From the NCBI GenBank assembly GCA_965116415.1, contig OZ220693.1, forward strand, positions 556,753 through 620,752: a DNA stretch of 64,000 bases. The letters are read 5' to 3'. Of the stretch, positions 4,025-51,405 are shown one piece after another. The stretch is from Dehalococcoidia bacterium (GTDB lineage Bacteria; Chloroflexota; Dehalococcoidia; Lucifugimonadales; UBA1123). The notes under the pieces were generated by a model. That model had not been told where the DNA came from. It ran no database searches and saw nothing but the letters and a program-made list of their open reading frames with translations. A program made the position numbers and the translations under genes. Position 1 is the stretch's first letter, and each line of letters starts with the position of its first letter.

Positions 4025-4163
4025 TGCGAGTGCTGCTCCCGTTTCACTTCCTGCCAGGTCTGTTCCTGCCCTGTTCCGACGCCGAGTCATCAAACTTCAG
4101 AACCAGGGCGTTCGGGGCGGAGTATAGCATAGCGACTCCAGACAGAACGCGCGGCGAACCCGT

Positions 4164-4192
4164 TTGACACGGTCTGACCGCATACCTATGAT
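4164..4192 (+). promoter_or_regulatory. Candidate sigma70-type promoter TTGACA-N17-TATGAT for the VWA gene
   Basis: TTGACA at 4164-4169, a 17-nt spacer, and TATGAT at 4187-4192, about 50 nt upstream of ATG 4241. Confidence 0.5.
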
Positions 4193-4240
4193 TGCGCCAT
4201 TCTGCCGAGCCAACGGTTCGCTGCATTGGGGGTCCGACCT

Positions 4241-6262
4241 ATGATCGGCTACCGCTACTCCCGCTGGGACGGTTCTCAACATCCCTTCGACTTCGACGAG
4301 GACGACATCCTCGACGCCCTGTCCGAAGACATTATGAATCACGGCGACGTCAACCGTGCCATGCGGAACCTGCTTCGCAGCGGAATGTCAGGCGATCAGG
4401 GCCAGAGAATCACCGGGCTGCGTGAGATGAGGGAAAGACTGAGGCAGATGCAGCAACAGAAGCTCCAGCAGTACAACCTCGAGTCTGCGATGGACGACAT
4501 CAAGGAGCGGCTACAGGACGTTCTCGACACCGAACGAAGTGGTATCGATAGGAGGGTCTCCGAAGCACAGGAAGACTTGGACAACGCCGGCGAGAACAGG
4601 GACGCTCTCCAACCCGCCATGGACCTCCTCGAGTCGCGAGCACAGCAGAACATGGAGAAGCTGGACCAACTGCCGGATAGCCCTGCAGGTCAGATGCGGG
4701 AGTTATCTGAGTACGACTTCATGGACCCGGAGGCACGGCAGAAGTTTGAAGAGCTAATGGACATGCTCCGGCAGCAGATGATGCAGAACTTCTTCCAGGG
4801 CATGAAGGACGCCATCGATGACATGTCGCCGGAAGACATGCAGCGTATGCAGGAGATGATCCAGGCTCTGAACCAGATGCTGCAAGACCGGGCCATGGGT
4901 GAAGATCCCGATTTCGAAGGATTCATGGAGCAATACGGTCAATTTTTCGATCCGGATAGGCCGGCAAGCCTCGACGAGCTGATCGAACGGCTGCAGCAGC
5001 AGATGGCCTCCATGCAGTCCCTGATGGACTCGATGCCCCAGCAGATGCGGGACGAGCTGATGGACATGCTCCAATCTTCGATGGACCAGTCGATGATGGG
5101 CGACCTGTCGGAACTGGCATCACTCATGTATGAGATGTTCCCATTCGATGACATGGCGAACGAGTATCCCTTCATGGGGGATGAGTCAGTCACACTGGAA
5201 CAGGCGATGAGGCTGATGGAACAGCTCCAGGACATGGACAGGCTGGACGATCAGTTCGAGTCGATGACCCGTCAGGGCAACGTCGACGACATCAATCTGG
5301 ACAAAGTTGAAGAGCACCTCGGAGACGAGGCCAGAAGAGAGATGGAGCAGCTTCAACAGCTCGTCAAGCAGCTGGAAGAGGCAGGCTACCTCAGGCGCGA
5401 CGGCGACCGCCTGGAGATCACCGCCCGAGGGATGCGTAAACTGGCCCAGAACGCGCTCAGAGAAGTGTTCTCAGAGATGAACAAGGACAGGATGGGCAGG
5501 CACGAGGTGTTCACAAGGGGCGATGGTGGTGAGTTCACCGGGGAAACCCGGCAATACCAGTTTGGAGACCCGTTCGACATCGACCTGCACAGAACGCTGT
5601 TCAACTCCGTGGTCCGAGGAGGGCCGAATGTTCCCGTGCAACTCTCTGTGGAAGACATGGAGATCCGGCACACGGAGCATTTGACGCAGACGGCAACAGT
5701 CCTGCTGCTGGACCAGAGCAAGTCAATGGGGATGTTCGGGTACTGGGGCCCGGCCAAGAAGGTCGCAATGGCGCTCTACTGGCTCATCCACTCCCAGTTC
5801 CCCAGGGACTACTTCTACCTGGTTGGGTTCTCCGACTACGCCATGGAGTTCAAGGAAGAGGACCTGCCGGAAGTCACATGGAACTACTGGAACTCTGGCA
5901 CCAACATGCAGCATGGACTGATGCTGGCACGCAAGCTGTTATCGCGTCAGAAAGTAGCCAACAAACACGTCATCATGGTGACGGACGGCGAACCCACAAC
6001 GCACCTGGAAGAGGGTCACGCTTACTTCAGCTATCCTCCCAGCTATCGTACGATCGAAGAGACTCTCAAAGAGGTAAAGCGCTGCACACAGGACGGCATC
6101 ACGATCAACACCTTCATGCTCGAAGCCAACTACTACCTGATGGACTTCATCGACCGGCTGACGAAGGTGAACAACGGGCGGGCGTTCTACAGCACTCCCA
6201 ACCAGCTCGGTGAGTACGTCATGGTCGACTACCTGCGGTCCAGGAAGCGCCGGATATCCTGA
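4241..6262 (+). CDS. von Willebrand factor type A (VWA) domain protein with long acidic Met/Gln-rich coiled region
   Basis: The C-terminal VWA fold carries a MIDAS-like motif 'LLLDQSKSM...GTNMQHGL...IMVTDGEPT'. The N-terminus 'MIGYRYSRWDG' is typical of this family. The track start is TTG 4226; ATG 4241 is preferred. Confidence 0.8.
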   Translation: MIGYRYSRWDGSQHPFDFDEDDILDALSEDIMNHGDVNRAMRNLLRSGMSGDQGQRITGLREMRERLRQMQQQKLQQYNLESAMDDIKERLQDVLDTERSGIDRRVSEAQEDLDNAGENRDALQPAMDLLESRAQQNMEKLDQLPDSPAGQMRELSEYDFMDPEARQKFEELMDMLRQQMMQNFFQGMKDAIDDMSPEDMQRMQEMIQALNQMLQDRAMGEDPDFEGFMEQYGQFFDPDRPASLDELIERLQQQMASMQSLMDSMPQQMRDELMDMLQSSMDQSMMGDLSELASLMYEMFPFDDMANEYPFMGDESVTLEQAMRLMEQLQDMDRLDDQFESMTRQGNVDDINLDKVEEHLGDEARREMEQLQQLVKQLEEAGYLRRDGDRLEITARGMRKLAQNALREVFSEMNKDRMGRHEVFTRGDGGEFTGETRQYQFGDPFDIDLHRTLFNSVVRGGPNVPVQLSVEDMEIRHTEHLTQTATVLLLDQSKSMGMFGYWGPAKKVAMALYWLIHSQFPRDYFYLVGFSDYAMEFKEEDLPEVTWNYWNSGTNMQHGLMLARKLLSRQKVANKHVIMVTDGEPTTHLEEGHAYFSYPPSYRTIEETLKEVKRCTQDGITINTFMLEANYYLMDFIDRLTKVNNGRAFYSTPNQLGEYVMVDYLRSRKRRIS

Positions 6263-10087: not shown

Positions 10088-11335
10088 TCACTCCATGCGG
10101 CTGAACACCACGCAGGCGTTCTGGCCACCGAATCCGAAGCTGTTTGACAGCACATGTGCTACGTCAGCCTTCCTTGCCTCATTGGGGACGTAGTCGAGGT
10201 CGCAGCCCGGGTCGGGGTGTTGGTAGTTGATCGTGGGGTGAATCAGGCCGTTCTGGATCGACTTCACGCAGGCGACGCCCTCAAGGGCCCCTGCCCCTCC
10301 GAGGGCATGCCCGATCATTGACTTCGTCGAGCTGATCGGGACCCTGTAGGCATCGTCACCGAAGGCCAGCTTGATTGCCATCGTCTCCACCTGGTCGTTG
10401 ATCGGAGTGGATGTACCATGGGCATTTATGTAGCTGATGTCTCCGGGCTCAAGGTCAGCATCCTCGATTGCCCAGCGGATAGCCCTTGCGGCGCCGGTTC
10501 CGTCTTCGTCCGGCTGAACGGCGTGGAAGGCATCTGAAGAGACTCCGTAGCCAGTAACCTCTGCCAGAATCTCAGCGCCCCGGCTTTCTGCGTGCTCCAG
10601 CGTCTCCATGACCAGGACCGCAGCCCCCTCCGAGGGCACAAATCCGTCCCTCTTGGCATCGAAGGGCCTGCTGGCTTTCTCCGGTTCTTCGTTCTGCCTG
10701 CTGAGAGCCTTGATGACGTTGAACCCGCCAAGACCAAGCTGGCTTATTCCTGCCTCACAGCCTCCCCCAAGGATCACGTCAGCAACCCCGCGCTGGAGCG
10801 CGACTGCTGCCTCCCCGATTGCCTGTGTCCCCGCTGCACATGCCGTAATGACGGTTGACGTATATCCCTTGAGTCCATAGATTCGGCTCACATTGGCCGC
10901 AGCCATGTTCGGCAGTATCATCGGAATGAAGAATGGCGACATTCGCATCCCGCCCCTGCGGACGAGAATGCGGGCATTGTCCTCGGTGGTCGGGAAGCCA
11001 CCGTTGCCATTGCCCATGACAACCCCGATCCGGTCCACGTTCTCCTTCGACAGGTTGAGTCCTGCATCCTCGATTCCGGCGGCGGCGGCGGCAACCGCCA
11101 TCTGCGAGAAGCGGGCCATCCTTCGGTGTTCACGACGATCGATGTAGTCGCCCGGATCAAAGCCGGTGACTTCGCCCGAGATTCTGGACGGAAACTCTGA
11201 GGGATCGCAGAGCGTCATCGGCCCGATTCCGGACCTTCCGTTCACGAGATGGTCCCAGTATTCATCTATCGATTCGCCCAAGGGCGTCATCGCTCCCATG
11301 CCGGTGATCACCACGCGAGTTGTGGCGTTCTTCAT
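10088..11335 (-). CDS. fabF: Beta-ketoacyl-ACP synthase II
   Basis: 415 aa. Active-site context 'TACAAG', the 'HGTSTP' and 'GHALGGAG' His motifs, and 'NSFGFGGQNA' at the C-terminus. Confidence 0.95.
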   Translation of the reverse strand: MKNATTRVVITGMGAMTPLGESIDEYWDHLVNGRSGIGPMTLCDPSEFPSRISGEVTGFDPGDYIDRREHRRMARFSQMAVAAAAAGIEDAGLNLSKENVDRIGVVMGNGNGGFPTTEDNARILVRRGGMRMSPFFIPMILPNMAAANVSRIYGLKGYTSTVITACAAGTQAIGEAAVALQRGVADVILGGGCEAGISQLGLGGFNVIKALSRQNEEPEKASRPFDAKRDGFVPSEGAAVLVMETLEHAESRGAEILAEVTGYGVSSDAFHAVQPDEDGTGAARAIRWAIEDADLEPGDISYINAHGTSTPINDQVETMAIKLAFGDDAYRVPISSTKSMIGHALGGAGALEGVACVKSIQNGLIHPTINYQHPDPGCDLDYVPNEARKADVAHVLSNSFGFGGQNACVVFSRME

Positions 11336-14285: not shown

Positions 14286-15585
14286 TCACGCTTACATTCA
14301 CACCGAGGGGTTCGGAGAGCCGCTTCATTCTCTGTAGCGAGTGCTGGCTGGACCGTCCGGTCGCGAGTACCGGTCTGCCCCTCTGCGACCTCGCCTTGCC
14401 GTGTCCCAAGTCGATGGGGTGGAGTTCAATCCGGTCAAGCTCGCCAGACTTAAACTCGCAGCGCGCGACGACGCTGTTCCAGTAGATCGCATCCCCCGGG
14501 AATCCTCTCGTGTCGTTCTCACTCCGCCGATCGTAGAAGTCGGCCGGAGTGCTTTCAGGCCCCAGTCCTACGGACTCAAAGTTGAATGCGGGCTGCCACT
14601 TCACTGTATCGTTCTGGAAGATGAAGTTGCCGAGGCTGTAGAAGATAGGTCTGCCTTCGTAGATCTCCACGGCGCGGGTGATGTGTGGACCGTGACCCAG
14701 GAAGGCATCTGCACCGGCGTTAATGCACGCTCTTGCGAAGGTCTGAAGAAATTCTGGCGGTTCGTCCGTGGTGTCCCCGCTCTCGTGGCAGTGGAACGAC
14801 ACAAACACCCAGTCAGCCATCCGGCTCGCGTCCCTGATCCACTTCAGGTTCTCGTCCATGTCGCGCTGGTTTGGCCTTGTCGACTTGCCAAACTCCTCAC
14901 CCAGGACAAACTTCCTGCCCAGGAAACCGAGCTGAGTGTCGTTGTCCTGCATAACCGTGCCCTTGGGCCTGAACCGCCTCTGCGCCGCGTTGCTCGCCTC
15001 GAATCCCAGGTTGCGGCTGACCCGCTTCATCGAATCGAAAGCCGGACGGTCCACTGTGTAGGTGACGGAGTGGCGAAGCGCGTTGAGTCCAGGCCTGCCA
15101 GGCAGGTCCGGTCGCTGGTCCATCGCCCTGCCCGCCTCGCTGAATGTTGACGACGCGGAGATTAGCGCCACCCTTCCGGCGGACGTGTCCAGGTATCCGG
15201 GAGCGCGGGCCTCGCTCTGGTTGCGTCCCGTGCCCGCGAATGCCATCCCGATGCTCTTCAGGTGGTCGATATTTGTCAGAACGCCGCCTTCGCCATAGTC
15301 GTAGCTGTGGTTGTTGGCGGTCGACACCAGGTTGATTCCGGCCCAGCTAAGCTCTTCGAGGTTTGCCGGATCAGACCCGGTAAATGTGCCGCCAGCCATC
15401 CCCGGAGAGTGCTCGAAGTCGTGCATGAGCATCTCGAGGTTGGTGTAACCGACATCGGCATTTTTGAAAAGGTCGACAAGTGATAGGAATCTCGGCTCCT
15501 TGAACACCGACAGGCGTCGAGTGATCATCGTGTCGCCGCTGGCGACTAGCGTTAGATTCCCGGATTCCGCGTCGTAGAGTGTCAT
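14257..15585 (-). CDS. CapA/PgsA-family (PGA_cap) metallophosphoesterase-like protein
   Basis: 'LVASGDTMITRR', 'GYTNLE', 'STANNHSYDYG' and 'HCHESG...LGHGPH' motifs of the CapA family. Confidence 0.8.
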   Translation of the reverse strand: MTLYDAESGNLTLVASGDTMITRRLSVFKEPRFLSLVDLFKNADVGYTNLEMLMHDFEHSPGMAGGTFTGSDPANLEELSWAGINLVSTANNHSYDYGEGGVLTNIDHLKSIGMAFAGTGRNQSEARAPGYLDTSAGRVALISASSTFSEAGRAMDQRPDLPGRPGLNALRHSVTYTVDRPAFDSMKRVSRNLGFEASNAAQRRFRPKGTVMQDNDTQLGFLGRKFVLGEEFGKSTRPNQRDMDENLKWIRDASRMADWVFVSFHCHESGDTTDEPPEFLQTFARACINAGADAFLGHGPHITRAVEIYEGRPIFYSLGNFIFQNDTVKWQPAFNFESVGLGPESTPADFYDRRSENDTRGFPGDAIYWNSVVARCEFKSGELDRIELHPIDLGHGKARSQRGRPVLATGRSSQHSLQRMKRLSEPLGVNVSVSDGVGVIEL

Positions 15586-15597
15586 AGTTGCAGCGCT

Positions 15598-16161
15598 TCA
15601 GCCTGTTCCTGGGTCGTACTCGGCGGCCAGCATTCCCATTACAACAGAGTTAGCTCTCTCTTCACCGTGTGGCCTGCTCTGACGTAGGGTCCCCTCGTGG
15701 ATGAACCCAACCCGCTCGAACAGCGTGCGAGCCGACAGGTTGAACTCCGGAACATCCACCCACACCCGGTAGAGTCCGTATTCATTGAATGCCAGATCAA
15801 GTGCCGCTCTTATGCCCGGAACGCCGTATCCACGAGTCCACCGGCTGCGTTGTCCCATCAGGATAGAAAGCTGGCCGTCGCCAAGCGCCTCGTCTAATCC
15901 AAGGTGGATCTCTCCGATGTGCTCGCCTTCGTCAGTGTACACGGACATCGTCACATGCGCCGGGTCTTCCAGGGCACGCGCAAATTCCTCATCTGTGGCA
16001 TCCTCCATCTCGGCAGGACGGTAGCCGAGATGGGCCGGTTCTCCATAGGCGTATCGTCCGAACCAGCTATCTGTGGTCTCTTCGTCCTCGAGCCACTCTC
16101 TAATTCTAGTCACGTCTTCCCGCGTGACCCCTCTTAGTGAAACAGTTCGTTGTCTTGTCAC
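15598..16161 (-). CDS. GNAT family N-acetyltransferase (RimJ/RimL-like)
   Basis: 187 aa. 'RGYGVPGIRAALDLAFNEYGLYRVWVDVPEFNLSARTLFERVGF' is an acetyl-CoA-binding core. Confidence 0.8.
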   Translation of the reverse strand: MTRQRTVSLRGVTREDVTRIREWLEDEETTDSWFGRYAYGEPAHLGYRPAEMEDATDEEFARALEDPAHVTMSVYTDEGEHIGEIHLGLDEALGDGQLSILMGQRSRWTRGYGVPGIRAALDLAFNEYGLYRVWVDVPEFNLSARTLFERVGFIHEGTLRQSRPHGEERANSVVMGMLAAEYDPGTG

Positions 16162-16335
16162 AGGAGTCCTCCGTAGCCTGAAAACTAGGAAGATATAGTC
16201 GAATCTTGTCGTGCGAATGTCGTCTACCGCTGGTGACGACGTCCGTGCCAGTATTATACATTGACGAGCGCATATATGGCTTGCAACACCATTTGCCAGT
16301 AACGACCCTGGCTCATCCCGGAGGAAAATCGCACA

Positions 16336-17511
16336 ATGTCAATTCAGCCAGTAGTACAACAGGCGCAGGAGTACATGACCTCCCAGGACGTGGACGGATG
16401 GCTCGTGTACGACTACAGAGGCCTCAATCCCATCCTGTCGGACACGGTCGGACGAGTCGGCCACGTCACAAGACCAGTGTGGCTCTGGATACCACAGAGT
16501 GGAGATCCTCACATGCTGGTCAGCTTCGTTGACCAGAGCAGGTTCACACACCTCGGCATCGATTCAACGCTCTTTGTAAACCGGATCGACATGATCGACA
16601 AGTTGAAGGACAGGCTAGGTGCGTCGGATCGCATCGCCATGGAGTATACCCCCGACGGGGCACTGCCACGCGTGTCTAAGGTGGACGGCGGCACACTCGA
16701 GTTGGTGCGAGGACTAGGGGTAGACGTAGTGTCATCTGCAGATCTTCTCCAGTATGCCACCCAACGCTGGACGGAAGAGCAACTTGCATCTCACATCTTT
16801 GCCGCTGAGAAGCTGACTCAGATCGTGCTGGAGGCTTTTGAGCACATCGGGAAGAGTCTCGACGAAGGCATCACCGAGTTCGATACCGCCGAGTTCATTC
16901 GCAACCGGTTCCGCGACAACGGGCTGGTGGTGACAGACGGCCCCGCAGTCGCCGTCAACGAGCACGCCTCTGATCCCCACTTCGACCCTACTCCTGAGAA
17001 CTCCGTCAGGATCAAGCGCGGAGACTGGGTGCTGATAGACCTGTGGACCCGGCTGCCCGGCGAGGACGACATGTTCGGCGACATCACCTGGACTGCCTAC
17101 GTGGGCGACGACGTTCCTGCCAGACACCAGGAAGTGTTCGACAACGTCCTTGGGGCCCGCGACGCTGCATTGGCCGAAATGGTAACCGCGTTCCAGGAGG
17201 GGCGCACCCTCCAGGGCTGGGAGCTGGACAAGGTGGCCAGGGACTACATTGAAGCTACCGGCTACGGCGAGTACTTCAACCACCGTCTGGGCCACAGCCT
17301 GGGGCGAGAGGTCCACTCCAACGCCGTCAACCTGGACTCGTGGGAGACGTACGACACGCGGCAGCTGATTCCGGGCATAGCCGTGACCATTGAGCCAGGA
17401 ATCTATGTTCCCGAATTCGGTGTGAGGTCAGAGATAGACGTCTTCTACTCAGAAGATGGGCCGCAGGTCACGACAGATATGCAGCGGGAGGTCGTGCTGA
17501 TCGAGAGCTAG
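16336..17511 (+). CDS. M24 family metallopeptidase (Xaa-Pro aminopeptidase-like)
   Basis: Pita-bread metal ligands 'DLW..GD', 'HRLGHSLG', 'VTIEPG' and 'SEIDV'. Confidence 0.85.
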   Translation: MSIQPVVQQAQEYMTSQDVDGWLVYDYRGLNPILSDTVGRVGHVTRPVWLWIPQSGDPHMLVSFVDQSRFTHLGIDSTLFVNRIDMIDKLKDRLGASDRIAMEYTPDGALPRVSKVDGGTLELVRGLGVDVVSSADLLQYATQRWTEEQLASHIFAAEKLTQIVLEAFEHIGKSLDEGITEFDTAEFIRNRFRDNGLVVTDGPAVAVNEHASDPHFDPTPENSVRIKRGDWVLIDLWTRLPGEDDMFGDITWTAYVGDDVPARHQEVFDNVLGARDAALAEMVTAFQEGRTLQGWELDKVARDYIEATGYGEYFNHRLGHSLGREVHSNAVNLDSWETYDTRQLIPGIAVTIEPGIYVPEFGVRSEIDVFYSEDGPQVTTDMQREVVLIES

Positions 17512-17513
17512 GA

Positions 17514-18752
17514 CTACTGACCGGCGCCCAGCTGATTCGCTGTCTTGGGGAGTCGTGTCGCCCACAGTATCAGTGCGCCGAGTATCACAAGCGCGCCACC
17601 GAATAGGAACGTGGCTGAGTTCCCCCACTGGTCCGCGACCCAGCCGGCTGCCCACGGAGAGAACGCTCCGATGAAGCTTGCGCCGTAGATCAGGGACACC
17701 ACCGTCGACTGGGCCTGGCCCTGCGCGACGTCCATTGCTCCGGCTATGTAGATCGTGTGTAGCGAGTACAGGAAGGCTCCCATGACCAGGACTACAAGCA
17801 CGAGCTGTGGCCCGGGTTCTGCAAACCTCAGACACATGATCAGAAGTCCAAGCGCAAGCGTGCAGGGTACGAGGACGACCTTGCGTCCGAACCTGTCCGA
17901 CAGGAACCCCATAATAGGCTGCGCGACAATGCCGGTTACCTGGGCGCCAGACATGAACAGCCCGATTACGACCTTTTCATAGTCGAGGTCTTCCAGCAGG
18001 TAAACGGGCAGGAACCCCATTACCGCTGACTGCCCGGAGCTTCGAAGTGCCGTCACGAAGACAAGGGAAAGCATCGCCCTTCGCTTCACCAGCGTCACCA
18101 GTGAAGTCAGGTATTGCCCCAGGGACTCGGCATCCGCCGCCGCGGCAGGAATGCTCCGCATCATCAGGTACACGGCGACGGCGATTATCAGCGCCGGGAG
18201 CACGCTCATGTGGAGCACGTCCCGCCATTCGAAGGCTACCAGGTACGTCCCGCTGATCAGACCGCCGGTCAACACCGGGCCTACAACTTCGCCAACGCTT
18301 CCTCCGGTGCCGTGCAGCGAGATTGCGAATCCGCGCCTGTCAGGGAACTTCCGGGACAGCGACGCAATGGCCGGTGGGTGATATAGCGACGGTCCTATTC
18401 CGACGAGCAGCATCACCGCGAACAGGAACCAGTAGCTCGGCGCACTGCCCATCAGGTAGTAGGAGACACCCATGATGCCCAGCGAGAGCATAAGCATCAG
18501 GCCCGACCTGTTTGCGAAACGGTCGCCGAGGTAACCGGCGACCATCGTCGTCGTACCGCTGGTGACCCTCTGCGACGTCGCGAGCAGTCCGAACTGGGTG
18601 CCGCTGAGGCCGAGATCGTCCTTGATGACGGCCAGGATGACGGACTGAAGTCCCGAGTTATAAATGTGCTTTACGGTGTGCCCAAGAACGACCGTGAACG
18701 CAAGCTGATTACGGCCCCTCTTGATTTCCTCAGTTACCTGAATTGTTGCCAT
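17514..18752 (-). CDS. MFS transporter
   Basis: 412 aa, about 12 predicted hydrophobic helices, and MFS loop motifs 'GYLGDRFANR' and 'LSDRFGRK'. Confidence 0.85.
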   Translation of the reverse strand: MATIQVTEEIKRGRNQLAFTVVLGHTVKHIYNSGLQSVILAVIKDDLGLSGTQFGLLATSQRVTSGTTTMVAGYLGDRFANRSGLMLMLSLGIMGVSYYLMGSAPSYWFLFAVMLLVGIGPSLYHPPAIASLSRKFPDRRGFAISLHGTGGSVGEVVGPVLTGGLISGTYLVAFEWRDVLHMSVLPALIIAVAVYLMMRSIPAAAADAESLGQYLTSLVTLVKRRAMLSLVFVTALRSSGQSAVMGFLPVYLLEDLDYEKVVIGLFMSGAQVTGIVAQPIMGFLSDRFGRKVVLVPCTLALGLLIMCLRFAEPGPQLVLVVLVMGAFLYSLHTIYIAGAMDVAQGQAQSTVVSLIYGASFIGAFSPWAAGWVADQWGNSATFLFGGALVILGALILWATRLPKTANQLGAGQ

Positions 18753-18779
18753 CGTTGTAGAAGACCGCCTTACTGACCG

Positions 18780-19967
18780 CTACTGATGCCGCCTGCCTTC
18801 GTATGGATGCTCAGCGCCCAGCAGGTCGCCTTCAGCGAACCGCGTTAACCTGAACTGGCTGACAGGATGATCACTCGACTCCCCGCGCATCACAAGCTCA
18901 GCCACCATGCGACCCACTACAGGCGACAGTTTGAACCCGTGTCCACTGAATCCGACCGCCCAGTATAGACCTTCCACAGTCTGAGATCGGTCAAGTATCG
19001 GATTGCCGTCCGGTGTCATGTCGTATAGAGAGCCGTAGCCGCCACGGCAGATCGCTGCTTCAAATTCGGGGAATCTCAGCTTGGCGCGGTCCCAGAAGCG
19101 TGTGATTACATCGTGGTCTGCGTTAAGACCGAACGCGTCCGGGTTGGCTACTTCCGCCAGGTCTTCCAGGGCCTCACCGCCTATAACCGTATCGTGGTCT
19201 CCATATACTCGGAAATATGCACCTGTTGAGTAGTCGATTATGTTTGTGTTTAGGCTCTCAAGTGGAGGAGGCCTTCTCATGTGCACCATCTGGACACGAA
19301 TGGGAGTAACCGGCAGGGACTCCCCGACTGCAGCGCCCAGATAGTGACACCACGGCCCTACAGCGGCGACCACCGTTGAAGTCTCAATTGTCCCCGAGCT
19401 TGTCTCCACACCCGCAATCCTTCCTCCAGAGACGACCAAACCTGACACTGGAGTCTGCGTGTGTATCTCGGCTCCGTAATCCCTGGCCCGCTCGGCGTAG
19501 GCGTAGGTCGTAGTGACGGGGTCAGCGTGACCCGCATCCGGCTCATAGGTGCCCATTGTTATCTCTTCAAGGTTCGCCTGGGGTACCATCCCGGCGACCT
19601 CTGTCGGTGTCAGCGTCTCTATGTTGACACCAAGGTCTCTGTTCATCTCAACGTTTGCGCGGGCAGCAGCCTCGTCCCGTTCTGTGAACATCAGGATTCT
19701 GCCGCCTTGTACGAACCGAGGATCACCTCCAATCGCGTCCCCGAAGTTCTGGAAGATCTCCCTTGACTCGGTCGCCATCCTCACCAGCGTGGGATGCAGG
19801 TAGTGCTCACGCACCATCGCACCGGACCGGCCCGTTGCGCCACCAGCTAGGTGACCCTTCTCCACCAGCACCACCCTGCCTGCGCCCATCCGAGCCAGGT
19901 GCATGGCGATGCTTGTCCCGTTAACTCCACCACCGATTACCACAACGTCCGCAGTCGCACTAGTCAT
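18780..19967 (-). CDS. FAD-dependent oxidoreductase (DAO / sarcosine-oxidase-beta-like)
   Basis: N-terminal 'DVVVIGGGVNGTSIA' dinucleotide fold. The length and 'GFSGHGFK' are typical of the DAO family. Confidence 0.85.
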   Translation of the reverse strand: MTSATADVVVIGGGVNGTSIAMHLARMGAGRVVLVEKGHLAGGATGRSGAMVREHYLHPTLVRMATESREIFQNFGDAIGGDPRFVQGGRILMFTERDEAAARANVEMNRDLGVNIETLTPTEVAGMVPQANLEEITMGTYEPDAGHADPVTTTYAYAERARDYGAEIHTQTPVSGLVVSGGRIAGVETSSGTIETSTVVAAVGPWCHYLGAAVGESLPVTPIRVQMVHMRRPPPLESLNTNIIDYSTGAYFRVYGDHDTVIGGEALEDLAEVANPDAFGLNADHDVITRFWDRAKLRFPEFEAAICRGGYGSLYDMTPDGNPILDRSQTVEGLYWAVGFSGHGFKLSPVVGRMVAELVMRGESSDHPVSQFRLTRFAEGDLLGAEHPYEGRRHQ

Positions 19968-23381: not shown

Positions 23382-23420
23382 CCCCCTCTCCCTCAGGGAG
23401 AGGGTTGGGGTGAGGGTGAA
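23382..23420 (+). repeat. Intergenic palindrome + G-tract element, copy 1
   Basis: The sequence is CCCCCTCTCCCTCAGGGAGAGGGTTGGGGTGAGGGTGAA, immediately after the amidase stop. CCCTCTCCCT pairs with AGGGAGAGGG. Near-identical copies are at 44069 and 51348. Confidence 0.85.
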
Positions 23421-23557
23421 TAGTCACTATTCCATGCTCATGGCGCTTCCCGTGAACCTCTGGATTCCAACTTTCGCTGGAACGACCGACCAATGCAATC
23501 GTCTCCGACTCCGAGTGAACTTTACCCGGTAAATCCAAAACAGTTACGCTTAATAGA

Positions 23558-29588: not shown

Positions 29589-29690
29589 GTTGCCGGCCTG
29601 CCTGAAACCAGGGGGTGGCTGCATTGCGTACAGATGTACAAATGTGGCCGGATAGAGCAAGGCACAATCTGTGAGGGTATGTTCCAAGGC

Positions 29691-30275
29691 ATGACGATGC
29701 ACAATAGTCTCGCCACAAGGGGTGTCGTACTATTCGCGGTGATTGCGCTCCTGGCGATTGCAGTCCTGTCGTGCTCCTCAGAGGAGTCTCCGACAGCGGA
29801 GCCGGAACAGGCGACTGATACCGAGGATACCCTGGACGACGCTCCCGACTTCGAGCTCGTCCTGTTCGGAAACGAAGATCACGAGGCAGGTGAAACCATC
29901 AGGCTGTCTGAGTTCGCTGGGAAGCCCGTAGTGCTCAACTTCTGGTTCCCGTCCTGCCCGCCGTGTGTCGCCGAAATGCCTGACTTCGAGACCGCTTACC
30001 AGGAGTTCAAGGATGACGGTGTAGAGTTCATCGGCATCCAGCTCGTCGGCCTGGACTCTGTGGACGACGGCCAGGAGTTCGTAAACAAGATTGGCGTCAA
30101 CTACAGCGTGGGCCCTGACAAGATCGGCGACAAGATGGGCGAAATAGTCATGGAATACATGATCTCTGGATTTCCCACGACGGTGCTCATCGACAGGGAC
30201 GGCAACATCCAAAGGCGATGGTCCGGAGCGCTAGACCTCGAAAAGCTCCGGGAGCTGATTCACGAGATCATGTAA
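29691..30275 (+). CDS. TlpA/ResA-like thiol-disulfide oxidoreductase lipoprotein
   Basis: Lipobox 'AVLSCSS' and thioredoxin-fold 'FWFPSCPPCVAEMP'. The start is ambiguous (29679, 29691 or 29697; the track gives 29634). Confidence 0.85.
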   Translation: MTMHNSLATRGVVLFAVIALLAIAVLSCSSEESPTAEPEQATDTEDTLDDAPDFELVLFGNEDHEAGETIRLSEFAGKPVVLNFWFPSCPPCVAEMPDFETAYQEFKDDGVEFIGIQLVGLDSVDDGQEFVNKIGVNYSVGPDKIGDKMGEIVMEYMISGFPTTVLIDRDGNIQRRWSGALDLEKLRELIHEIM

Positions 30276-39620: not shown

Positions 39621-39670
39621 GAACGAACGGTCCCGGTCGTCATTTGGCCGACCTAACGCCGAGGTCTGAA

Positions 39671-40792
39671 ATGTCTAGCGAAGCGAAACTGCGGCGCACT
39701 CCTCTTTATGATGTCCACTCCAGCATGGGAGCAAAGTTCGTGCCGTTCGCTGGCTGGGAGATGCCCGTGCAGTACGGCAGCATCCTGGAAGAGGCGCGGG
39801 CGGTTCGTTCAGGGGTTGGGCTGTTCGACGTGTCCCACATGGGTCGCCTGGAGATCCTCGGCGCGGACGCGGCCGACCTGCTGAACTCGACGCTGAGCAT
39901 CAGGGTCGACAACCTCGGAGTGGGACGTGCTCGGTACAACGTCATCTGCGATTCCGACGGCGGCATCATCGACGACTGCATCGTTTACAGGCGAGGAAGG
40001 GAGCGCTTTCTTCTCGTACCGAATGCTTCGAACACAGGTCCGGTCGTTGAGTGGCTGGAAGAGTGGACGCCGAACGAGGCGGACGTGACTATGAAGAACG
40101 TGACGCCCGACGTCGCCATGATTGCTTGTCAGGGGCCAGGCGCCGAAGAGACCCTCCAGCGTCTTACGGACTTCGACGTTTCGATGTCGAACCTGAGGCC
40201 ATTCAGGGGCAGGACCATGACGATCTGCAGCGCGTCGTGCTACGTGGGAAGGACCGGGTACACCGGTGAAGATGGCTTCGAGATCATGGCGCCATCGGAT
40301 GCCGCGCCGTCTGTGTGGCAGGCACTTGTAGATCAGGGCGCAGCCTCGTGCGGGCTGGCGGCACGAGACGTGCTCAGGCTCGAAGCAGGGCTGCTGTTGC
40401 ACGGCAACGACATGGACACGTCGGTGAACCCGTACGAAGCGGGATTGGGCCGGTTCGTTGAACCTGACCGTAAAGAGTACGTCGCCGGTAAGGCGCTACG
40501 CAGGGTCCTGGACGAAGGAATATCGCGTAAGCTGGTTGGATTTGCGATGGAAGGAAGAGGCATCGCCCGTCACGGCTACCGGATACTCGACGGAGAGAGA
40601 ACCATCGGAGAGGTGTCATCCGGCGGGCCTGCACCGACTCTTGACTTGAACATAGGCATGGGCTATGTTCCCATCGAATATTCGGAGCCGGGAACACGTA
40701 TCGAAATCGAAATACGGAACCGCCCCGTGAAGGCTCAGGTTACTGACCTCCCATTCTACGCAGGCGGCAATGTTTTGGTCGGTGCATTGTGA
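39671..40792 (+). CDS. gcvT: Glycine cleavage system aminomethyltransferase T
   Basis: 'RTPLYDVH...GAKFVPFAGWEMPVQY', 'FDVSHMG' and 'GYTGEDGFEI'. ATG 39671 is preferred over the track TTG 39644. Confidence 0.95.
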   Translation: MSSEAKLRRTPLYDVHSSMGAKFVPFAGWEMPVQYGSILEEARAVRSGVGLFDVSHMGRLEILGADAADLLNSTLSIRVDNLGVGRARYNVICDSDGGIIDDCIVYRRGRERFLLVPNASNTGPVVEWLEEWTPNEADVTMKNVTPDVAMIACQGPGAEETLQRLTDFDVSMSNLRPFRGRTMTICSASCYVGRTGYTGEDGFEIMAPSDAAPSVWQALVDQGAASCGLAARDVLRLEAGLLLHGNDMDTSVNPYEAGLGRFVEPDRKEYVAGKALRRVLDEGISRKLVGFAMEGRGIARHGYRILDGERTIGEVSSGGPAPTLDLNIGMGYVPIEYSEPGTRIEIEIRNRPVKAQVTDLPFYAGGNVLVGAL

Positions 40793-40846
40793 ACCCCCTT
40801 AATGGCTCGGGTGACCATCCCACCTTTCTACATGTGGTGAGAACTC

Positions 40847-41233
40847 ATGAATCCAGATAATCTCAAGTATTCGCGTGAGCATGAATGGCTAAACGTTGAC
40901 GACGACGGATATGCCATAATTGGCATAACCCACTTTGCCCAGGACAGTCTGGGCGATGTGGTCTTTGTCGAACTGCCTGAAGTTGGCGGCGATGTCGGCC
41001 AGTTCGAAAAGATGGGCGAGATCGAGTCCGTTAAGGCCGTATCGGACCTCTATTCCCCAGTCAGTGGCAAGGTCGTTGAACGAAACGACAGGCTGCTCGA
41101 CCAACCTGAGCTCGTGAACGACAGCCCTTACGAAGATGGCTGGATGTTGAAGGTCCAGATGGACGACTCGTCGGAAGTGGACAACCTCCTGAGTTCGTCC
41201 CAGTACGACGACCTCCTGGAATCCGAGGCGTAG
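40847..41233 (+). CDS. gcvH: Glycine cleavage system H protein
   Basis: 'EIESVKAVSDLYSPVSG' lipoyl-lysine motif; 128 aa. Confidence 0.95.
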   Translation: MNPDNLKYSREHEWLNVDDDGYAIIGITHFAQDSLGDVVFVELPEVGGDVGQFEKMGEIESVKAVSDLYSPVSGKVVERNDRLLDQPELVNDSPYEDGWMLKVQMDDSSEVDNLLSSSQYDDLLESEA

Positions 41234-41241
41234 ATCGCACC

Positions 41242-42572
41242 ATGGCGCCAAACGAGTACCAGTCTCCGTATGTCCCTAACACCGATCCCGACCGACGAGC
41301 GATGCTCGACGTCATTGGGGTCGATTCTATAGAAGAGCTGTTCGCCGACATACCGGACGGCTACCTGAACTACGACCTCGATATCCCATCGGCCCGCAAC
41401 GAGCTTGACCTCACTCGCTACGCTCGGGAACTCGCCGCCATGAACCGCACCCCAGGCGAATACGCCTGCTTCCTGGGCGCAGGTTCGTACAGGCACCACA
41501 TTCCTGCTGTGGTCAGGCAGATCACCAGTCGAAGCGAGTACATGACCGCCTACACGCCGTATCAGCCTGAGGTTTCTCAGGGCACCCTCCAGACGGCGTT
41601 CGAGTTCCAGAGTCTCATCTGCCAGCTGACCGGAATGGACGTGGCCAATCTCGGCATGTACGACGGCTCGACATCTCTGGCCGAGGCCGCTCTCATGGCA
41701 TCGAGAATCACACGCAGACACCGGGCAGCGGTCGTTGACTCCGTATCGCCCCTGTACCGCGAGGTTCTGGACACGTACGTGCAGGCGCCGGGAATTGAAA
41801 TCAACACAGTTCCCGCTTCGGCCGATTCCCTACCTGACGAGACGGCTTGTCTTATTGTCCAGCAGCCTAACTTCTACGGCTACATGGAAGACGTCGACAG
41901 GCTCGCAAAGATGGCGCACGATGCCGGAGCGCTGCTGATCGTCAGCGTGGACCCCGTATCGCTCGGTATGTTCAGACCTCCGAGCGACTACGGCGCAGAC
42001 ATCGTAGTCGGAGAGGGCCAGGCTCTCGGCGTTCCCACCACGTTTGGCGGCCCATACGTCGGGCTATTTGCCTGCAAGCAGGACTACATCCGGCAGATGC
42101 CAGGACGTATTGTTGGCAAGACCGTCGACACTCGCGGCGAAGAAGCGTACGTCCTGACCCTGCAGACACGCGAGCAGCACATCAGGCGGAGCGAGCAACG
42201 TCAAACATCTGCACCGCGGTTGCACTCATCGCATTGATGTCCACTGTCTATCTCGCGTCTTTCGGACGACGTGGACTCCGTCATGTAGCAGAGCTCTGCT
42301 ACCACAAGTCTCACTACGCCGCCGACCGGATTGAGGAGATTCCAGGATACTCAGTGCCAATGGACGGTACATTCTTCCAGGAGTTCGTAGTCGAATGCCC
42401 TGGGAACCCTTCAGAGATCAACGAAAAGCTGCTGGACTACGGAATCATAGGCGGAGCCGATATTAGCCCGCAGGTGCCAAACGGCATGTTGGTGTGCGTC
42501 ACCGAAATGAACACACGGGACGAGATAGAGAATCTGGTCGCAGCATTGGCTGAGATAGGGGGAGCGGCATAG
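41242..42572 (+). CDS. gcvPA: Glycine dehydrogenase (decarboxylating) subunit 1, reading frame interrupted by a 1-nt frameshift near 42189
   Basis: Track ORFs 41242..42237 and 42234..42572 are the N- and C-terminal parts of one GcvPA. Switching frame at CGG|GAG (42187-42191) reads '..REQHIRR ERATSNICTAVALIALMSTVYLASFG..', the conserved GcvPA segment. Confidence 0.85.
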
Positions 42573-44054
42573 ATGGCTTCCCTCCTTGAAAGAGCTGCGC
42601 TGGACCGGCGAAAACTGCTCATGGACCGCAGCAGGTCGGGGCGTATCGGCACGACCCTTCCGCCGCTCGATGTTCCTGAGACTCAGCTGCCAGACTCGTC
42701 CATGCTTCGCGACGAACTGGACCTCCCGGAGGTATCCGAGGGGGAGATCGTCCGTTACTTCTCGCAGATTAGCCAGTTCAACTTCTCAATAGATCACAAC
42801 TTCTACCCGCTCGGCAGTTGCACGATGAAGTACAACCCGAAGCTGAATGACGAGATCGCGTCAATTCCGGGGTTCGCCCAAATACACCCGCTGCAGCCCG
42901 TGGCCACAGTGCAGGGCGCCGTCAAATTGGTGTGGGAGCTCCAGGAAGTCCTGAACGAGATTACGGGCATGGCCGGCTGCTCGCTCGCTCCCATGGCAGG
43001 CGCCGACGGTGAACTTGCGGGCCTCCTGATGGCGAGGGCCTACCACCTCGACCGCGGCGACGATAAGCGAAAGAACGTGTTGATTCCCGACTCCGCGCAC
43101 GGCACCAACCCGGCATCCGCAGCGATGGCTGGCTTCAACGTCGTGACTCTGCCCTCCGACTCGGCCGGCAATACCGACCTCGACGCCCTGAGAGACTCAG
43201 TAAGCGACGAACTGGCAGGCTTGATGATTACCCTGCCGAGCACACTAGGGCTCTTCGACACCAATATCCTCGACGTAACGCGCATCGTTCGCGACGCCGG
43301 GGGAATTGTGTACGGCGACGGCGCCAACCTCAACGCGATCGTCGGCAGGGTCAAGTTCGGGGACTTAGGCTTCGACGTCATCCACTCCAACCTGCACAAG
43401 ACCTTCACCCAACCACACGGCGGCGGCGGCCCAGGTGCAGGCCCTGTCATCGCCGGACCAAGGCTCGTTGACTACCTGCCAACACCTGTCGCTGGGAGGC
43501 ATCAGGACAACGGTGAAGAGACGTTCTCACTTGATACACCGGCGAATACGATCGGCCGGATGGGAGCGTTCCACGGAAACTTCGGAGCCCTGGTGAGGGC
43601 GTGGTCATACATCTTCACACTTGGCAAAGAGGGCATCCCGCAGATTAGCGAGGACGCCGTCATCAACGCCAACTACATTCTCAGCGAGCTCAAGGGGCAC
43701 TACGACCTCCCGTATGACCGTACCTGTATGCACGAGGTGGTCTTTGCGGCGACCAATCTCAGGCGCGAACATGGCGTCCGCGCAATGGACGTAGCGAAGC
43801 GCCTGATCGACTACGGAATACACCCACCCACGATGTACTTCCCGCTCGTCGTCGAAGAGGCGTTGATGATTGAACCGACCGAGACAGAGTCCAAGGAGAC
43901 CCTGGATTACTTCATCGAAGTGATGAAGCAGATCGCAGCTGAGGCCGCAGAAGACCCGGACATGCTCCACGAAGCGCCACACAACACACCGAATACCCGG
44001 CTGGACGAGGCCCGCGCCGCCCGCCGACCAGACCTCAGGTGGCGACGCCAATAA
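42573..44054 (+). CDS. gcvPB: Glycine dehydrogenase (decarboxylating) subunit 2
   Basis: 'NFYPLGSCTMKYNP' and 'SNLHKTF' (PLP-Lys). The ATG directly abuts the gcvPA stop. Confidence 0.95.
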   Translation: MASLLERAALDRRKLLMDRSRSGRIGTTLPPLDVPETQLPDSSMLRDELDLPEVSEGEIVRYFSQISQFNFSIDHNFYPLGSCTMKYNPKLNDEIASIPGFAQIHPLQPVATVQGAVKLVWELQEVLNEITGMAGCSLAPMAGADGELAGLLMARAYHLDRGDDKRKNVLIPDSAHGTNPASAAMAGFNVVTLPSDSAGNTDLDALRDSVSDELAGLMITLPSTLGLFDTNILDVTRIVRDAGGIVYGDGANLNAIVGRVKFGDLGFDVIHSNLHKTFTQPHGGGGPGAGPVIAGPRLVDYLPTPVAGRHQDNGEETFSLDTPANTIGRMGAFHGNFGALVRAWSYIFTLGKEGIPQISEDAVINANYILSELKGHYDLPYDRTCMHEVVFAATNLRREHGVRAMDVAKRLIDYGIHPPTMYFPLVVEEALMIEPTETESKETLDYFIEVMKQIAAEAAEDPDMLHEAPHNTPNTRLDEARAARRPDLRWRRQ

Positions 44055-44068
44055 GAACTAGACAACAT

Positions 44069-44108
44069 CCCCCTCTCCCTTGAGGGAGAGGGCTGGGGTG
44101 AGGGTGAA
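44069..44108 (+). repeat. Intergenic palindrome + G-tract element, copy 2
   Basis: The sequence is CCCCCTCTCCCTTGAGGGAGAGGGCTGGGGTGAGGGTGAA, 15 nt after the gcvPB stop. Confidence 0.85.
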
Positions 44109-44185
44109 TACCCACCCCTTCAGCACGCAGCACGACATAAGAAGAGACCTTGTAAATCCTCTAACAACAGGAGATAGAAAAAGAG

Positions 44186-44647
44186 ATGTCAGAAGTAGGC
44201 CATATGGCCCCAGACTTCACCCTACCCGCCCATAACGGCGAACCGATTACCCTTAGCGACTTCAGGGGAGAGAAGAACGTCGTTCTGTCGTTCCACATCT
44301 TTTCCTTCACAGGTGGTTGAACGCACCAGGTCTCCTCGATGCGTATACACAACGCATCATTCGAGGAGGCTGGCGCCCAGGTACTGGGCATAAGCTGTGA
44401 CTCCCGACCGACACAGGTAGCGTTCGCTTCGTCCTTGGGATCGATCCCATATCCGCTGCTGGCTGACTACTGGCCGCACGGCGGAGTGTGCCAGAGTCTG
44501 GGCATACTGAACGAACAGCTCGGAGCGCCCTTCAGAGCGATCATCATAATCGATAAAGAGGGTGTCATCAGGTTCAAGGAGACCTACACTGCCGCTGGGG
44601 ACGTCGATCCCCGTGCGATCCTGGCAGAGGTCGAGAAGCTCCCATAA
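44186..44647 (+). CDS. AhpE-like 1-Cys peroxiredoxin with in-frame TGA (44318-44320) at the peroxidatic Cys position; candidate selenoprotein
   Basis: Hand translation gives '[31 protein letters not shown][TGA][64 protein letters not shown]'. It is in the same frame as track ORF 44339..44647 and totals 153 codons. Confidence 0.7.
44332..44368 (+). promoter_or_regulatory. Stem-loop 11 nt downstream of the in-frame TGA (candidate bacterial SECIS)
   Basis: The outer stem is 44332-44339 paired with 44361-44368 (8 bp) and the inner stem is 44340-44344 paired with 44352-44356 (5 bp). The apical loop is AUACACA and the 3' bulge is UCAU. Confidence 0.4.
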
Positions 44648-44685: not shown

Positions 44686-45492
44686 ATCCAACGCCGGGGA
44701 CCGTTCCGGGAGGGGGAGTACGTCCAACTTCTTGATCGCCGCGGACGCACTTACCTTGTCCAACTCACGCCCGGAGACCTCTTCGAGACGCACATCGGCA
44801 ATTACCCTACCGGCGACCTGATCGGCCAGCCCGAGGGCTCACGGATCGTCACCAACCGGGGCCACCGGCTGTTAGCGGTCAGACCTACCCTGTCGGACCT
44901 GACACTCCGGATGCCGAGGCTCGCGACGGTCATGTACCCCAAGGATCTCGGCGCGCTGCTCGTGTACGCCGACATCTTCACCGGCGCACGTGTCCTGGAG
45001 GCCGGTGCCGGCTCGGGAGCAGTCACCATGACTCTGCTCAGGGCCGTTGGAGAGACCGGACGCGTATTTACCTACGACGTGCGGCAGGACATGCTCGATC
45101 AGGCGCAGTCCAACATCGCAAGGTACTTCGAGAGCTGGGATAACCTTGAGCTAAAGATTGGCGACGTTTATGAAGGCTTCGTCGAGGAAGATATAGACAG
45201 GATCGTCCTTGATCTCCCGGAGCCCTGGCACGTCGTCCCACATGCTTCGGACCGCCTCGTACCCGGCGGTCTGTTCTTCGGCTTCATACCGACCGTTCCG
45301 CAGGTTGACGAGCTAGTCCGTACTCTTCGCCGGCAGAGAACGTTCGGATTGATCGAGACAATGGAGATCATGATGCGCCAGTGGAACGTCAGTGGGCGCA
45401 GTGTGAGACCTTCACATCGCATGGTGGGTCACACGGGATTCATCGTCACCGCCCGCCGCGTGAGCGAGCGTTCGTCAGAGACAGAAGACTAA
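44686..45492 (+). CDS. trmI: tRNA (adenine58-N1)-methyltransferase TrmI; 5' boundary uncertain (no canonical start codon upstream of conserved N-domain)
   Basis: The in-frame upstream translation 'GPFREGEYVQLLDRRGRTYLVQLTPGDLFETHIGNYPTGDLIGQPEGSRIVTNRGHRLLAVRPTLSDLTLRMPRLATVMYPKD' is the TrmI N-terminal domain. The track ATG 44911 would delete it. 'VLEAGAGSGAVT' is the SAM motif. Confidence 0.8.
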   Translation: MQRRGPFREGEYVQLLDRRGRTYLVQLTPGDLFETHIGNYPTGDLIGQPEGSRIVTNRGHRLLAVRPTLSDLTLRMPRLATVMYPKDLGALLVYADIFTGARVLEAGAGSGAVTMTLLRAVGETGRVFTYDVRQDMLDQAQSNIARYFESWDNLELKIGDVYEGFVEEDIDRIVLDLPEPWHVVPHASDRLVPGGLFFGFIPTVPQVDELVRTLRRQRTFGLIETMEIMMRQWNVSGRSVRPSHRMVGHTGFIVTARRVSERSSETED

Positions 45493-51347: not shown

Positions 51348-51386
51348 CACCCTCTCCCTGAGGGAAAGGGCTGGGGTGAGGGTGAA
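51348..51386 (+). repeat. Intergenic palindrome + G-tract element, copy 3 (between atpG and atpD, antisense to the operon)
   Basis: The sequence is CACCCTCTCCCTGAGGGAAAGGGCTGGGGTGAGGGTGAA, within the 101-nt atpG-atpD spacer. Confidence 0.85.
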
Positions 51387-51405
51387 ATTCCAAATTCACT
51401 AGTCA

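Follow-up and report, generated by a model that had tools for sequence, protein, structure and literature searches.

A candidate selenocysteine-containing AhpE-type peroxiredoxin of Dehalococcoidia and the conserved hairpin downstream of its in-frame UGA

Peroxiredoxins (Prx) of the pfam00578 family with selenocysteine (Sec) in a TxxU motif are among the most abundant selenoprotein families in marine metagenomes, with 43 genes reported from the Sargasso Sea and 253 in Global Ocean Sampling (GOS) data (PMC1088965, PMC2398784), and PrxU of Eubacterium acidaminophilum provides an experimental precedent for a Sec-peroxiredoxin (Sohling 2001, cited in PMC13188914). Here we analyze a 64,000-nt stretch of a Dehalococcoidia genome (assembly GCA_965116415.1, contig OZ220693.1, positions 556,753–620,752 of the forward strand; hereafter, the window), in which positions 44186–44647 very probably encode a single 153-residue peroxiredoxin of the AhpE type with Sec as the peroxidatic residue. 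In the AhpE of Mycobacterium tuberculosis, this role is played by Cys45.

The predicted protein resembles the marine metagenomic Sec-peroxiredoxins in its Pfam family, its TxxU motif, the placement of Sec at the peroxidatic site and its marine bacterial origin. One read in the 2008 GOS supplement (JCVI_READ_1092963440716) has U at the same site and shares 65% full-length identity with the window protein; it therefore represents the same subfamily, of which the supplement lists a second read (PMC2398784). As a selenoprotein, the subfamily is thus not new to the literature. The marine lists name no organism, whereas the subfamily is tied here to Dehalococcoidia and the SAR202 cluster. Most other listed marine Sec-peroxiredoxins keep a Pro in the active-site motif (FPKAFTGGU, FPKASTPGU, YPLDWTGTU), in contrast to the Ile or Val found in the window subfamily. 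The best NCBIfam match of the window protein is PrxU (NF040737), which also has Sec at the peroxidatic site; the score of 58.8 bits against a cut-off of 270, with partial coverage of the 233-position profile, places the window gene in a different Prx subfamily and not among PrxU equivalogs. No NCBIfam model names this Sec-Prx lineage, and no publication assigning it to SAR202 or to the AhpE type was found in the open-access library that was searched. This literature bears out the remark in a first-pass annotation of the window, made from the sequence alone, that Sec-containing Prx families occur in anaerobes and marine metagenomes.

Gene structure, family and active site

For comparison, one genome per species was scanned, yielding 415 confirmed stretches. 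The best 80 of these, all from Dehalococcoidia, SAR202-cluster or Chloroflexota metagenome-assembled genomes and many of them closed chromosomes of 2.7–4.3 Mb, were combined with the window and six metagenome loci into a family set of 87 sequences, whose proteins are 58–96% identical to that of the window. The features of the gene are as follows.

44170..44173, + strand: GGAG resembling a Shine-Dalgarno sequence, 12 nt before the ATG; its function is predicted from the sequence
44186..44647, + strand: predicted selenoprotein coding sequence (CDS), AhpE-type peroxiredoxin, 153 codons including the UGA-Sec codon 45, plus TAA
44294..44299, + strand: His37-Ile38; Ile at the canonical Pro position of PxxxTxxC/U, His invariant (87/87)
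44309..44320, + strand: T-G-G-U, the TxxU redox motif (Thr42 to Sec45); Thr invariant (87/87)
44318..44320, + strand: UGA predicted to be read as Sec (residue 45), on the AhpE Cys45 column; TGA in 86/87, TGC in 1/87
44339..44647, + strand: 102-aa open reading frame (ORF) of gene callers, the C-terminal two thirds of the gene, from internal Met52
44534..44536, + strand: codon of Arg117, the conserved peroxiredoxin active-site Arg, invariant (87/87)

The frame opens with ATG at 44186 and closes with TAA at 44645–44647, and its sole interruption is the TGA of codon 45 (44318–44320); the first-pass annotation had placed the start, the internal TGA and the terminal stop at the same positions. A mechanical ORF list splits the gene into 44186–44320 (44 aa) and 44339–44647 (102 aa). 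When translated through the TGA with Cys at codon 45, the product matches the AhpC/TSA profile PF00578 with 110.9 bits (5e-32; gathering cut-off, 26 bits), residues 4–130 aligning with profile positions 1–123 of 124, across the TGA. In a phmmer search of the PDB, the seven top matches were all M. tuberculosis AhpE (Rv2238c; E = 2.5e-31), which defines the AhpE subfamily and is termed a 1-Cys peroxiredoxin in PDB titles, and the next Prx subfamily, 2-Cys Prx, followed at ~1e-14. Over 130 residues, 42% are identical to AhpE. Because this alignment is gap-free before the site, position 45 falls on Cys45 of the AhpE FTGIC motif. Thus, the profile and homolog alignments run continuously through the TGA, and both the conservation on its two sides and its location on the peroxidatic-Cys column, as proposed in the first-pass annotation, stand.

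The fold was assessed on P0039, an ortholog that naturally has Cys and shares 59% identity with the window protein; it was modeled with AF2 using family sequences as the alignment and stands in for the window protein. The model is confident (pLDDT 95.7, pTM 0.91), and its 12 best fold matches in the PDB are all AhpE, with TM scores of 0.93–0.95 and root-mean-square deviations (rmsd) of 1.3–1.6 Å. The next match is Bcp4 (TM 0.91), and all top matches are peroxiredoxins. The window protein is accordingly classified from its sequence as a peroxiredoxin of the AhpE subfamily, closer to AhpE than to the Prx1/AhpC, Prx6, Prx5, Tpx or BCP/PrxQ subfamilies, which agrees with the AhpE-like identity suggested initially.

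The protein shares with AhpE a length of 153 aa, the peroxidatic residue at position 45 and the conserved Thr and Arg, in addition to the fold (TM 0.95 and rmsd 1.3 Å for the Cys ortholog). Thr42 and Sec45 align with T42 and C45 of AhpE, and Arg117 aligns with the AhpE Arg of the ANRGTF segment (R116), the residue replaced in the R116A mutant structure (PDB 4xih). Unlike AhpE, the window protein has Sec in place of Cys, Ile38 in place of Pro38 and His37 in place of Phe37, and it comes from Chloroflexota, not Actinobacteria. The top PDB sequence match is the AhpE F37H mutant (5c04).

Apart from Sec, 79 of the 87 family sequences have Cys71 and 33, among them the window protein, have Cys102. Five members contain no Cys at all, and an internal resolving Cys is therefore not required. 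We propose that the selenolate at residue 45, aided by Thr42 and Arg117, would reduce hydroperoxides and that the resulting selenenic acid would be recycled by an external thiol reductant in AhpE-like chemistry of the 1-Cys type, as expected from knowledge of the family. The mycoredoxin and mycothiol reductants of AhpE (PDB 5id2; JGI annotation) are not to be assumed for the window protein.

The window contains a second gene with an AhpC/TSA-Redoxin domain (29634–30275). It encodes a membrane-anchored TlpA/ResA-like thiol:disulfide oxidoreductase with the motif WFPSCPPC; it is all-Cys and not a selenoprotein.

The in-frame UGA across the family

Codon 45 is TGA in 86 of the 87 sequences and TGC (Cys) in the remaining one, L006, the source of P0039, so that a Cys/Sec column of the kind sought in the first-pass annotation is present. 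The codons flanking the TGA vary synonymously across the family. Outside this set, one variant (P0006) has TCA (Ser) at codon 45; it was found in two independent metagenome assemblies, ERZ27257750 and ERZ23496520 (L087:1091–1549 and L088:679–1137), with the downstream hairpin described below intact. With Ser at the peroxidatic site, peroxidase activity should be lost.

If the TGA were a genuine stop, through pseudogene formation or a sequencing error, no full-length protein would be made. The gcvPA gene of the same window gives some grounds for this concern, as it carries a probable 1-nt indel that is absent from six relatives and implies that the base accuracy of the window is imperfect. The TGA itself is corroborated by many assemblies: it recurs in dozens of independent ones and is therefore not a read error. 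A pseudogene would not remain intact over a divergence reaching 58% protein identity, and the family sequences from independent assemblies, at 58–96% identity, have kept the frame, the active-site residues and synonymous variation along with the TGA. We consider a genuine stop very improbable.

The protein databases hold this gene in two populations. The first consists of 102-aa proteins with 79–96% identity, encoded on contigs of up to 3.3 Mb, and hence represents the same truncated gene call in relatives; the identical 102-aa call occurs in many of them (P0011, P0020, P0040, P0049 and others), beside a 44-aa AhpC-TSA call. The second consists of ~152-aa proteins with 52–69% identity from short ENA contigs, and these have W at column 45, as do most full-length database homologs (P0001 to P0030, e.g. 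L005:127–588). Taken at face value, W at this column would favor a genome-wide reassignment of TGA to Trp (code 4) or, in another form, to Gly (code 25). The DNA behind the second population, however, has TGA, and the stored proteins are not reproduced under table 11, so that W is a gene-calling artifact of code 4 on short contigs. Further, TGA terminates 9 of 48 long, Pfam-supported ORFs of the window, from which it follows that the genetic code is standard, and with Trp or Gly as its peroxidatic residue the enzyme would be dead. The prx gene is the only one in which a conserved in-frame TGA was found, whether in the window or in the 1.59 Mb screened from relatives. Of the 134 ORF pairs of the window that are joined by a TGA, only the Prx is credible and the remainder are noise, and a comparative screen of 5185 U-centered peptides recovered the Prx and otherwise only off-frame translations. 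Reassignment thus appears to have almost no chance of being correct.

A second in-frame TGA in the window (15598–15600), located between GNAT and PGA_cap ORFs, was considered as a Sec site and proved to be just the stop codon of the GNAT gene.

The gene is near-universal in the sampled SAR202/Dehalococcoidia relatives, and public data carry it in three wrong forms: as the 102-aa fragment, even in closed NCBI/ENA chromosomes, as the 44-aa plus 102-aa pair, and as the Trp-containing protein of code 4. This mis-annotation recurs throughout the 415 confirmed stretches because NCBIfam has no model to rescue the gene. The gene is best called as one 153-aa selenoprotein, and its counterparts in hundreds of Dehalococcoidia/SAR202 genomes need re-annotation.

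The downstream hairpin and the case for selenocysteine

Bacterial selenocysteine insertion sequence (SECIS) elements are stable, evolutionarily maintained stem-loops located within the CDS just 3' of the UGA, where they are bound by SelB (PMC9312934). The window gene has a comparable structure at this location, composed of the following elements.

44326..44373, + strand: SECIS-like two-tier hairpin within the CDS, defined by folding, pairing, covariation and a synonymous-recoding control
44326–44329 / 44370–44373, + strand: extra closing pairs in this genome
44332–44338 / 44362–44368, + strand: outer stem (7 bp), beginning 11 nt past the UGA
44340–44344 / 44352–44356, + strand: inner stem, from the predicted fold
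44345–44351, + strand: apical loop of 7 nt, AUACACA
44357–44360, + strand: 3' bulge of 4 nt
44374..44390, + strand: second small hairpin, GCGCCCAGGTACTGGGC (codes A-Q-V-L-G), directly 3' of the first

The 68 nt starting from the UGA fold at -29.7 kcal/mol (z = -4.1), and the 39-nt hairpin core (44332–44368 region) reaches z = -6.5. Most of the 75 distinct family sequences are predicted to fold in this way, and on their gap-free alignment the outer stem is 92% paired, compared with 37–55% in slid controls. Three outer-stem pairs switch from C-G to U-A or from G-C to A-U, in 16, 20 and 12 sequences. Because the switching pairs all join third codon positions and all changes run from GC to AT, we included a control for GC drift, in which true partners gave phi values of 0.77, 0.91 and 0.62 and cross-partners of the same six columns 0.28–0.64; covariation exceeds the drift background at two of the three varying pairs. 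The RNA structure is also maintained beyond what the protein sequence dictates. When codons were shuffled synonymously within genes, the median hairpin energy was -7.9 kcal/mol, as against -17.4 kcal/mol for the native sequences, and in 85% of genes at most 5% of the recodings were as stable as the native hairpin. For the window, the values are -22.3 kcal/mol (native) and -10.3 kcal/mol (recoded), with none of 200 recodings equally stable. A conserved hairpin under selection is thus present after the UGA, at the place where the first-pass annotation had suggested looking for a stem-loop.

The inner helix is swapped between clades with pairing kept (UGCGU/ACGCA, CCGAAUU/AAUUCGG and CAGGGC/GCCCUG). 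Since it shifts register in this way, the RNAalifold consensus of the 75 sequences recovers just 4 bp of the outer stem. The hairpin differs from known bacterial SECIS elements in having no Rfam match, a two-tier stem with a 3' bulge and a clade-specific inner helix. The sole Cys (TGC) ortholog (L006, 521–979) retains it with z = -3.45, which suggests either a recent Sec-to-Cys switch or a structure with another role. As a transcription terminator the hairpin was rejected: it has no U-tract, and no terminator was called on the + strand. The small hairpin that follows, GCGCCCAGGTACTGGGC, recurs in the predicted folds of almost the whole family, and RNAalifold shows it with G-C/A-U switches at two pairs; it may reflect coding only, as the Cys form carries it too.

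We propose that the UGA at 44318–44320 would be decoded as Sec during translation, with the hairpin core at 44332–44368 acting as a bacterial SECIS that would bring SelB and Sec-tRNA(Sec) to the ribosome. The machinery expected for this process is listed for a relative with the same gene. The TGA form of the gene is present in SAR202 cluster bacterium bin90 (L039 = MPND01000001.1), and MPND00000000 is bin90 of Slaby et al. 2017, for which Table S4 of PMC5649159, read by column order, gives SelA = 3, SelB = 1 and SelD = 1; SAR202 bins 16, 87, 22 and 127 likewise list SelA, SelB and SelD. Hence at least one genome with the gene has a Sec pathway, and by analogy the window's own genome may have one as well.

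Several observations weigh against Sec at this position, in addition to the imperfect base accuracy mentioned above. The Pro of the PxxxTxxC/U motif, termed highly conserved in a 2026 review (PMC13188914), is absent from the family (Ile in 85/87, Val in 2/87); it is retained in AhpE (F-P) and in most distant Cys homologs, with Gly in P0080. The loss of Pro is a real departure from the textbook peroxiredoxin motif, and the protein is still filed as a peroxiredoxin despite it because the profile, fold, Thr, Sec and Arg agree. In the hairpin, the third covarying pair (21–45) does not rise above the GC-drift background. The TGA is kept in three AT-rich relatives (L059, L062 and L077, ~10133–10207 in each) whose downstream hairpin is not significant (z ~0; 12–14% of synonymous recodings fold equally well), and this clade uses either another recoding signal or one that is much weaker. 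No SECIS family of Rfam was detected, either in the window at the gathering threshold or in a permissive scan of 44250–44450; the scans yielded only tRNA-Pro and two chance-level matches (g2 and Spot 42). A conserved G in the apical loop is a feature of the bacterial SECIS consensus, and the loop AUACACA lacks it. According to a review, some genuine SECIS elements depart from the consensus (PMC9312934). Finally, ARAGORN found no tRNA-Sec in the window or the 86 loci (1.59 Mb), and no selA, selB or selD was found in the 64-kb window (Pfam, 49 long ORFs) or in the relatives' flanks; the lack of these genes is uninformative, as the sample is 64 kb.

The unusual loop would also fit a selenium-free read-through of the UGA, in which a near-cognate tRNA or Cys is inserted with the help of the hairpin, and the natural Ser variant in two assemblies indicates that a residue other than Sec or Cys is tolerated in some populations. 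Against this reading, the site is that of the catalytic nucleophile, and the sense codons found there in nature encode just Cys (once) and Ser (once); the Sec machinery of bin90 and the classification of the family as a selenoprotein by an independent pipeline (GOS) point in the same direction. Were only the 102-aa fragment functional, it would have to act without β-strands 1–3 and the entire active-site helix of the Prx fold. We regard selenium-free read-through and a functional fragment, taken together, as improbable, and Sec at residue 45 of a full-length AhpE-type peroxiredoxin as by far the better account of the locus.

As such, the gene adds a new ortholog to a selenoprotein family that was already known, and its recognition is an annotation fix rather than a discovery that overturns current understanding. 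The small new points are the assignment to SAR202, the Ile/Val in place of the active-site Pro and the lack of a covering NCBIfam PrxU model. The scientific interest is modest and comes from three features: an active site without Pro, a putative SECIS that departs from the consensus, and natural variants with Cys or Ser; a Pro-less, His37-containing Sec site on the crystallized AhpE scaffold amounts to a natural experiment on the contributions of Sec and Pro. The organism and its SAR202 relatives are probable selenium users with a selenium-dependent peroxide defense, which bears on the demand for trace elements of the deep ocean and of sponge symbioses. A more far-reaching interpretation, which we offer tentatively and consider rather doubtful, is that the SAR202/Dehalococcoidia Sec-peroxiredoxins form a mechanistically distinct AhpE-type lineage, in which the adoption of Sec was accompanied by the loss of an active-site Pro that is nearly universal elsewhere (H-I/V-x-x-F-T-G-G-U) and by a lineage-specific SECIS with a non-consensus loop, and which is fixed across hundreds of species and systematically missing from annotations. 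If true, this would concern a bacterial group that ranks among the most abundant in the deep ocean and in association with sponges.

Genomic neighborhood

The prx gene is located between a glycine-cleavage operon and a tRNA methyltransferase gene.

39644–40792, + strand: gcvT (Pfam, synteny)
40847–41233, + strand: gcvH (Pfam, synteny)
41242–42572, + strand: gcvPA (Pfam; frameshifted in the window)
42573–44054, + strand: gcvPB (Pfam, synteny)
44686..45492, + strand: TrmI/GCD14-like tRNA methyltransferase (Pfam TrmI-like_N and GCD14), downstream of prx

The window has ~85% DNA identity to the nearest genomes and therefore represents a separate species. The gcvT-gcvH-gcvPA-gcvPB operon (39644..44054) lies directly upstream of prx, an adjacency that is clade-specific: gcvPB is found less than 500 nt upstream of prx in 45 of 79 loci, and this arrangement is absent in open-ocean clades. 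The gcvPA gene is broken near 42188 into ORFs of 331 and 112 aa in different frames (Pfam GDC-P positions 3–314 and 330–428). One base present in all six compared relatives is missing here (CAGGCG-GAGCG), and the break reflects an assembly indel or else a frameshift that arose very recently.

Downstream, the order of prx and the trmI-like gene is kept in 80 of 83 loci, and the two are probably co-transcribed. Where translation of the trmI-like gene begins is uncertain: the first canonical start codon is at 44911, the N-terminal domain of the product is encoded upstream of this position, and the frame between the preceding stop and that point contains neither ATG nor GTG nor TTG. At 44686, four codons before a GPF motif, there is a conserved ATT/ATC, and the prx stop is overlapped by an ATA at 44644. 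L008–L010 and L016 share this anomaly, while the more distant relatives L001 and L013 have ATG or GTG. The pattern points to a non-canonical start codon or to translation coupled to that of prx. Beyond the trmI-like gene follow a Methyltransf_28 gene and a citrate synthase gene on the other strand.

An intergenic element of ~40 nt occurs in three + strand copies (23382–23421, 44069–44108 and 51350–51387), one of which sits between gcvPB and prx. It consists of a palindrome followed by a G-rich tail (CCCCCTCTCCCTyrAGGGAGAGGGyTGGGGTGAGGGTGAA), and three matches were obtained in none of 100 shuffles; the element looks like a repetitive extragenic palindromic (REP)-type repeat. In one relative (L001), four DDE_Tnp_1_4 transposase genes lie within 20 kb of prx (3932–5257, 14886–16211, 16777–17874 and 18502–19827), and these are absent from the otherwise syntenic L002–L004.

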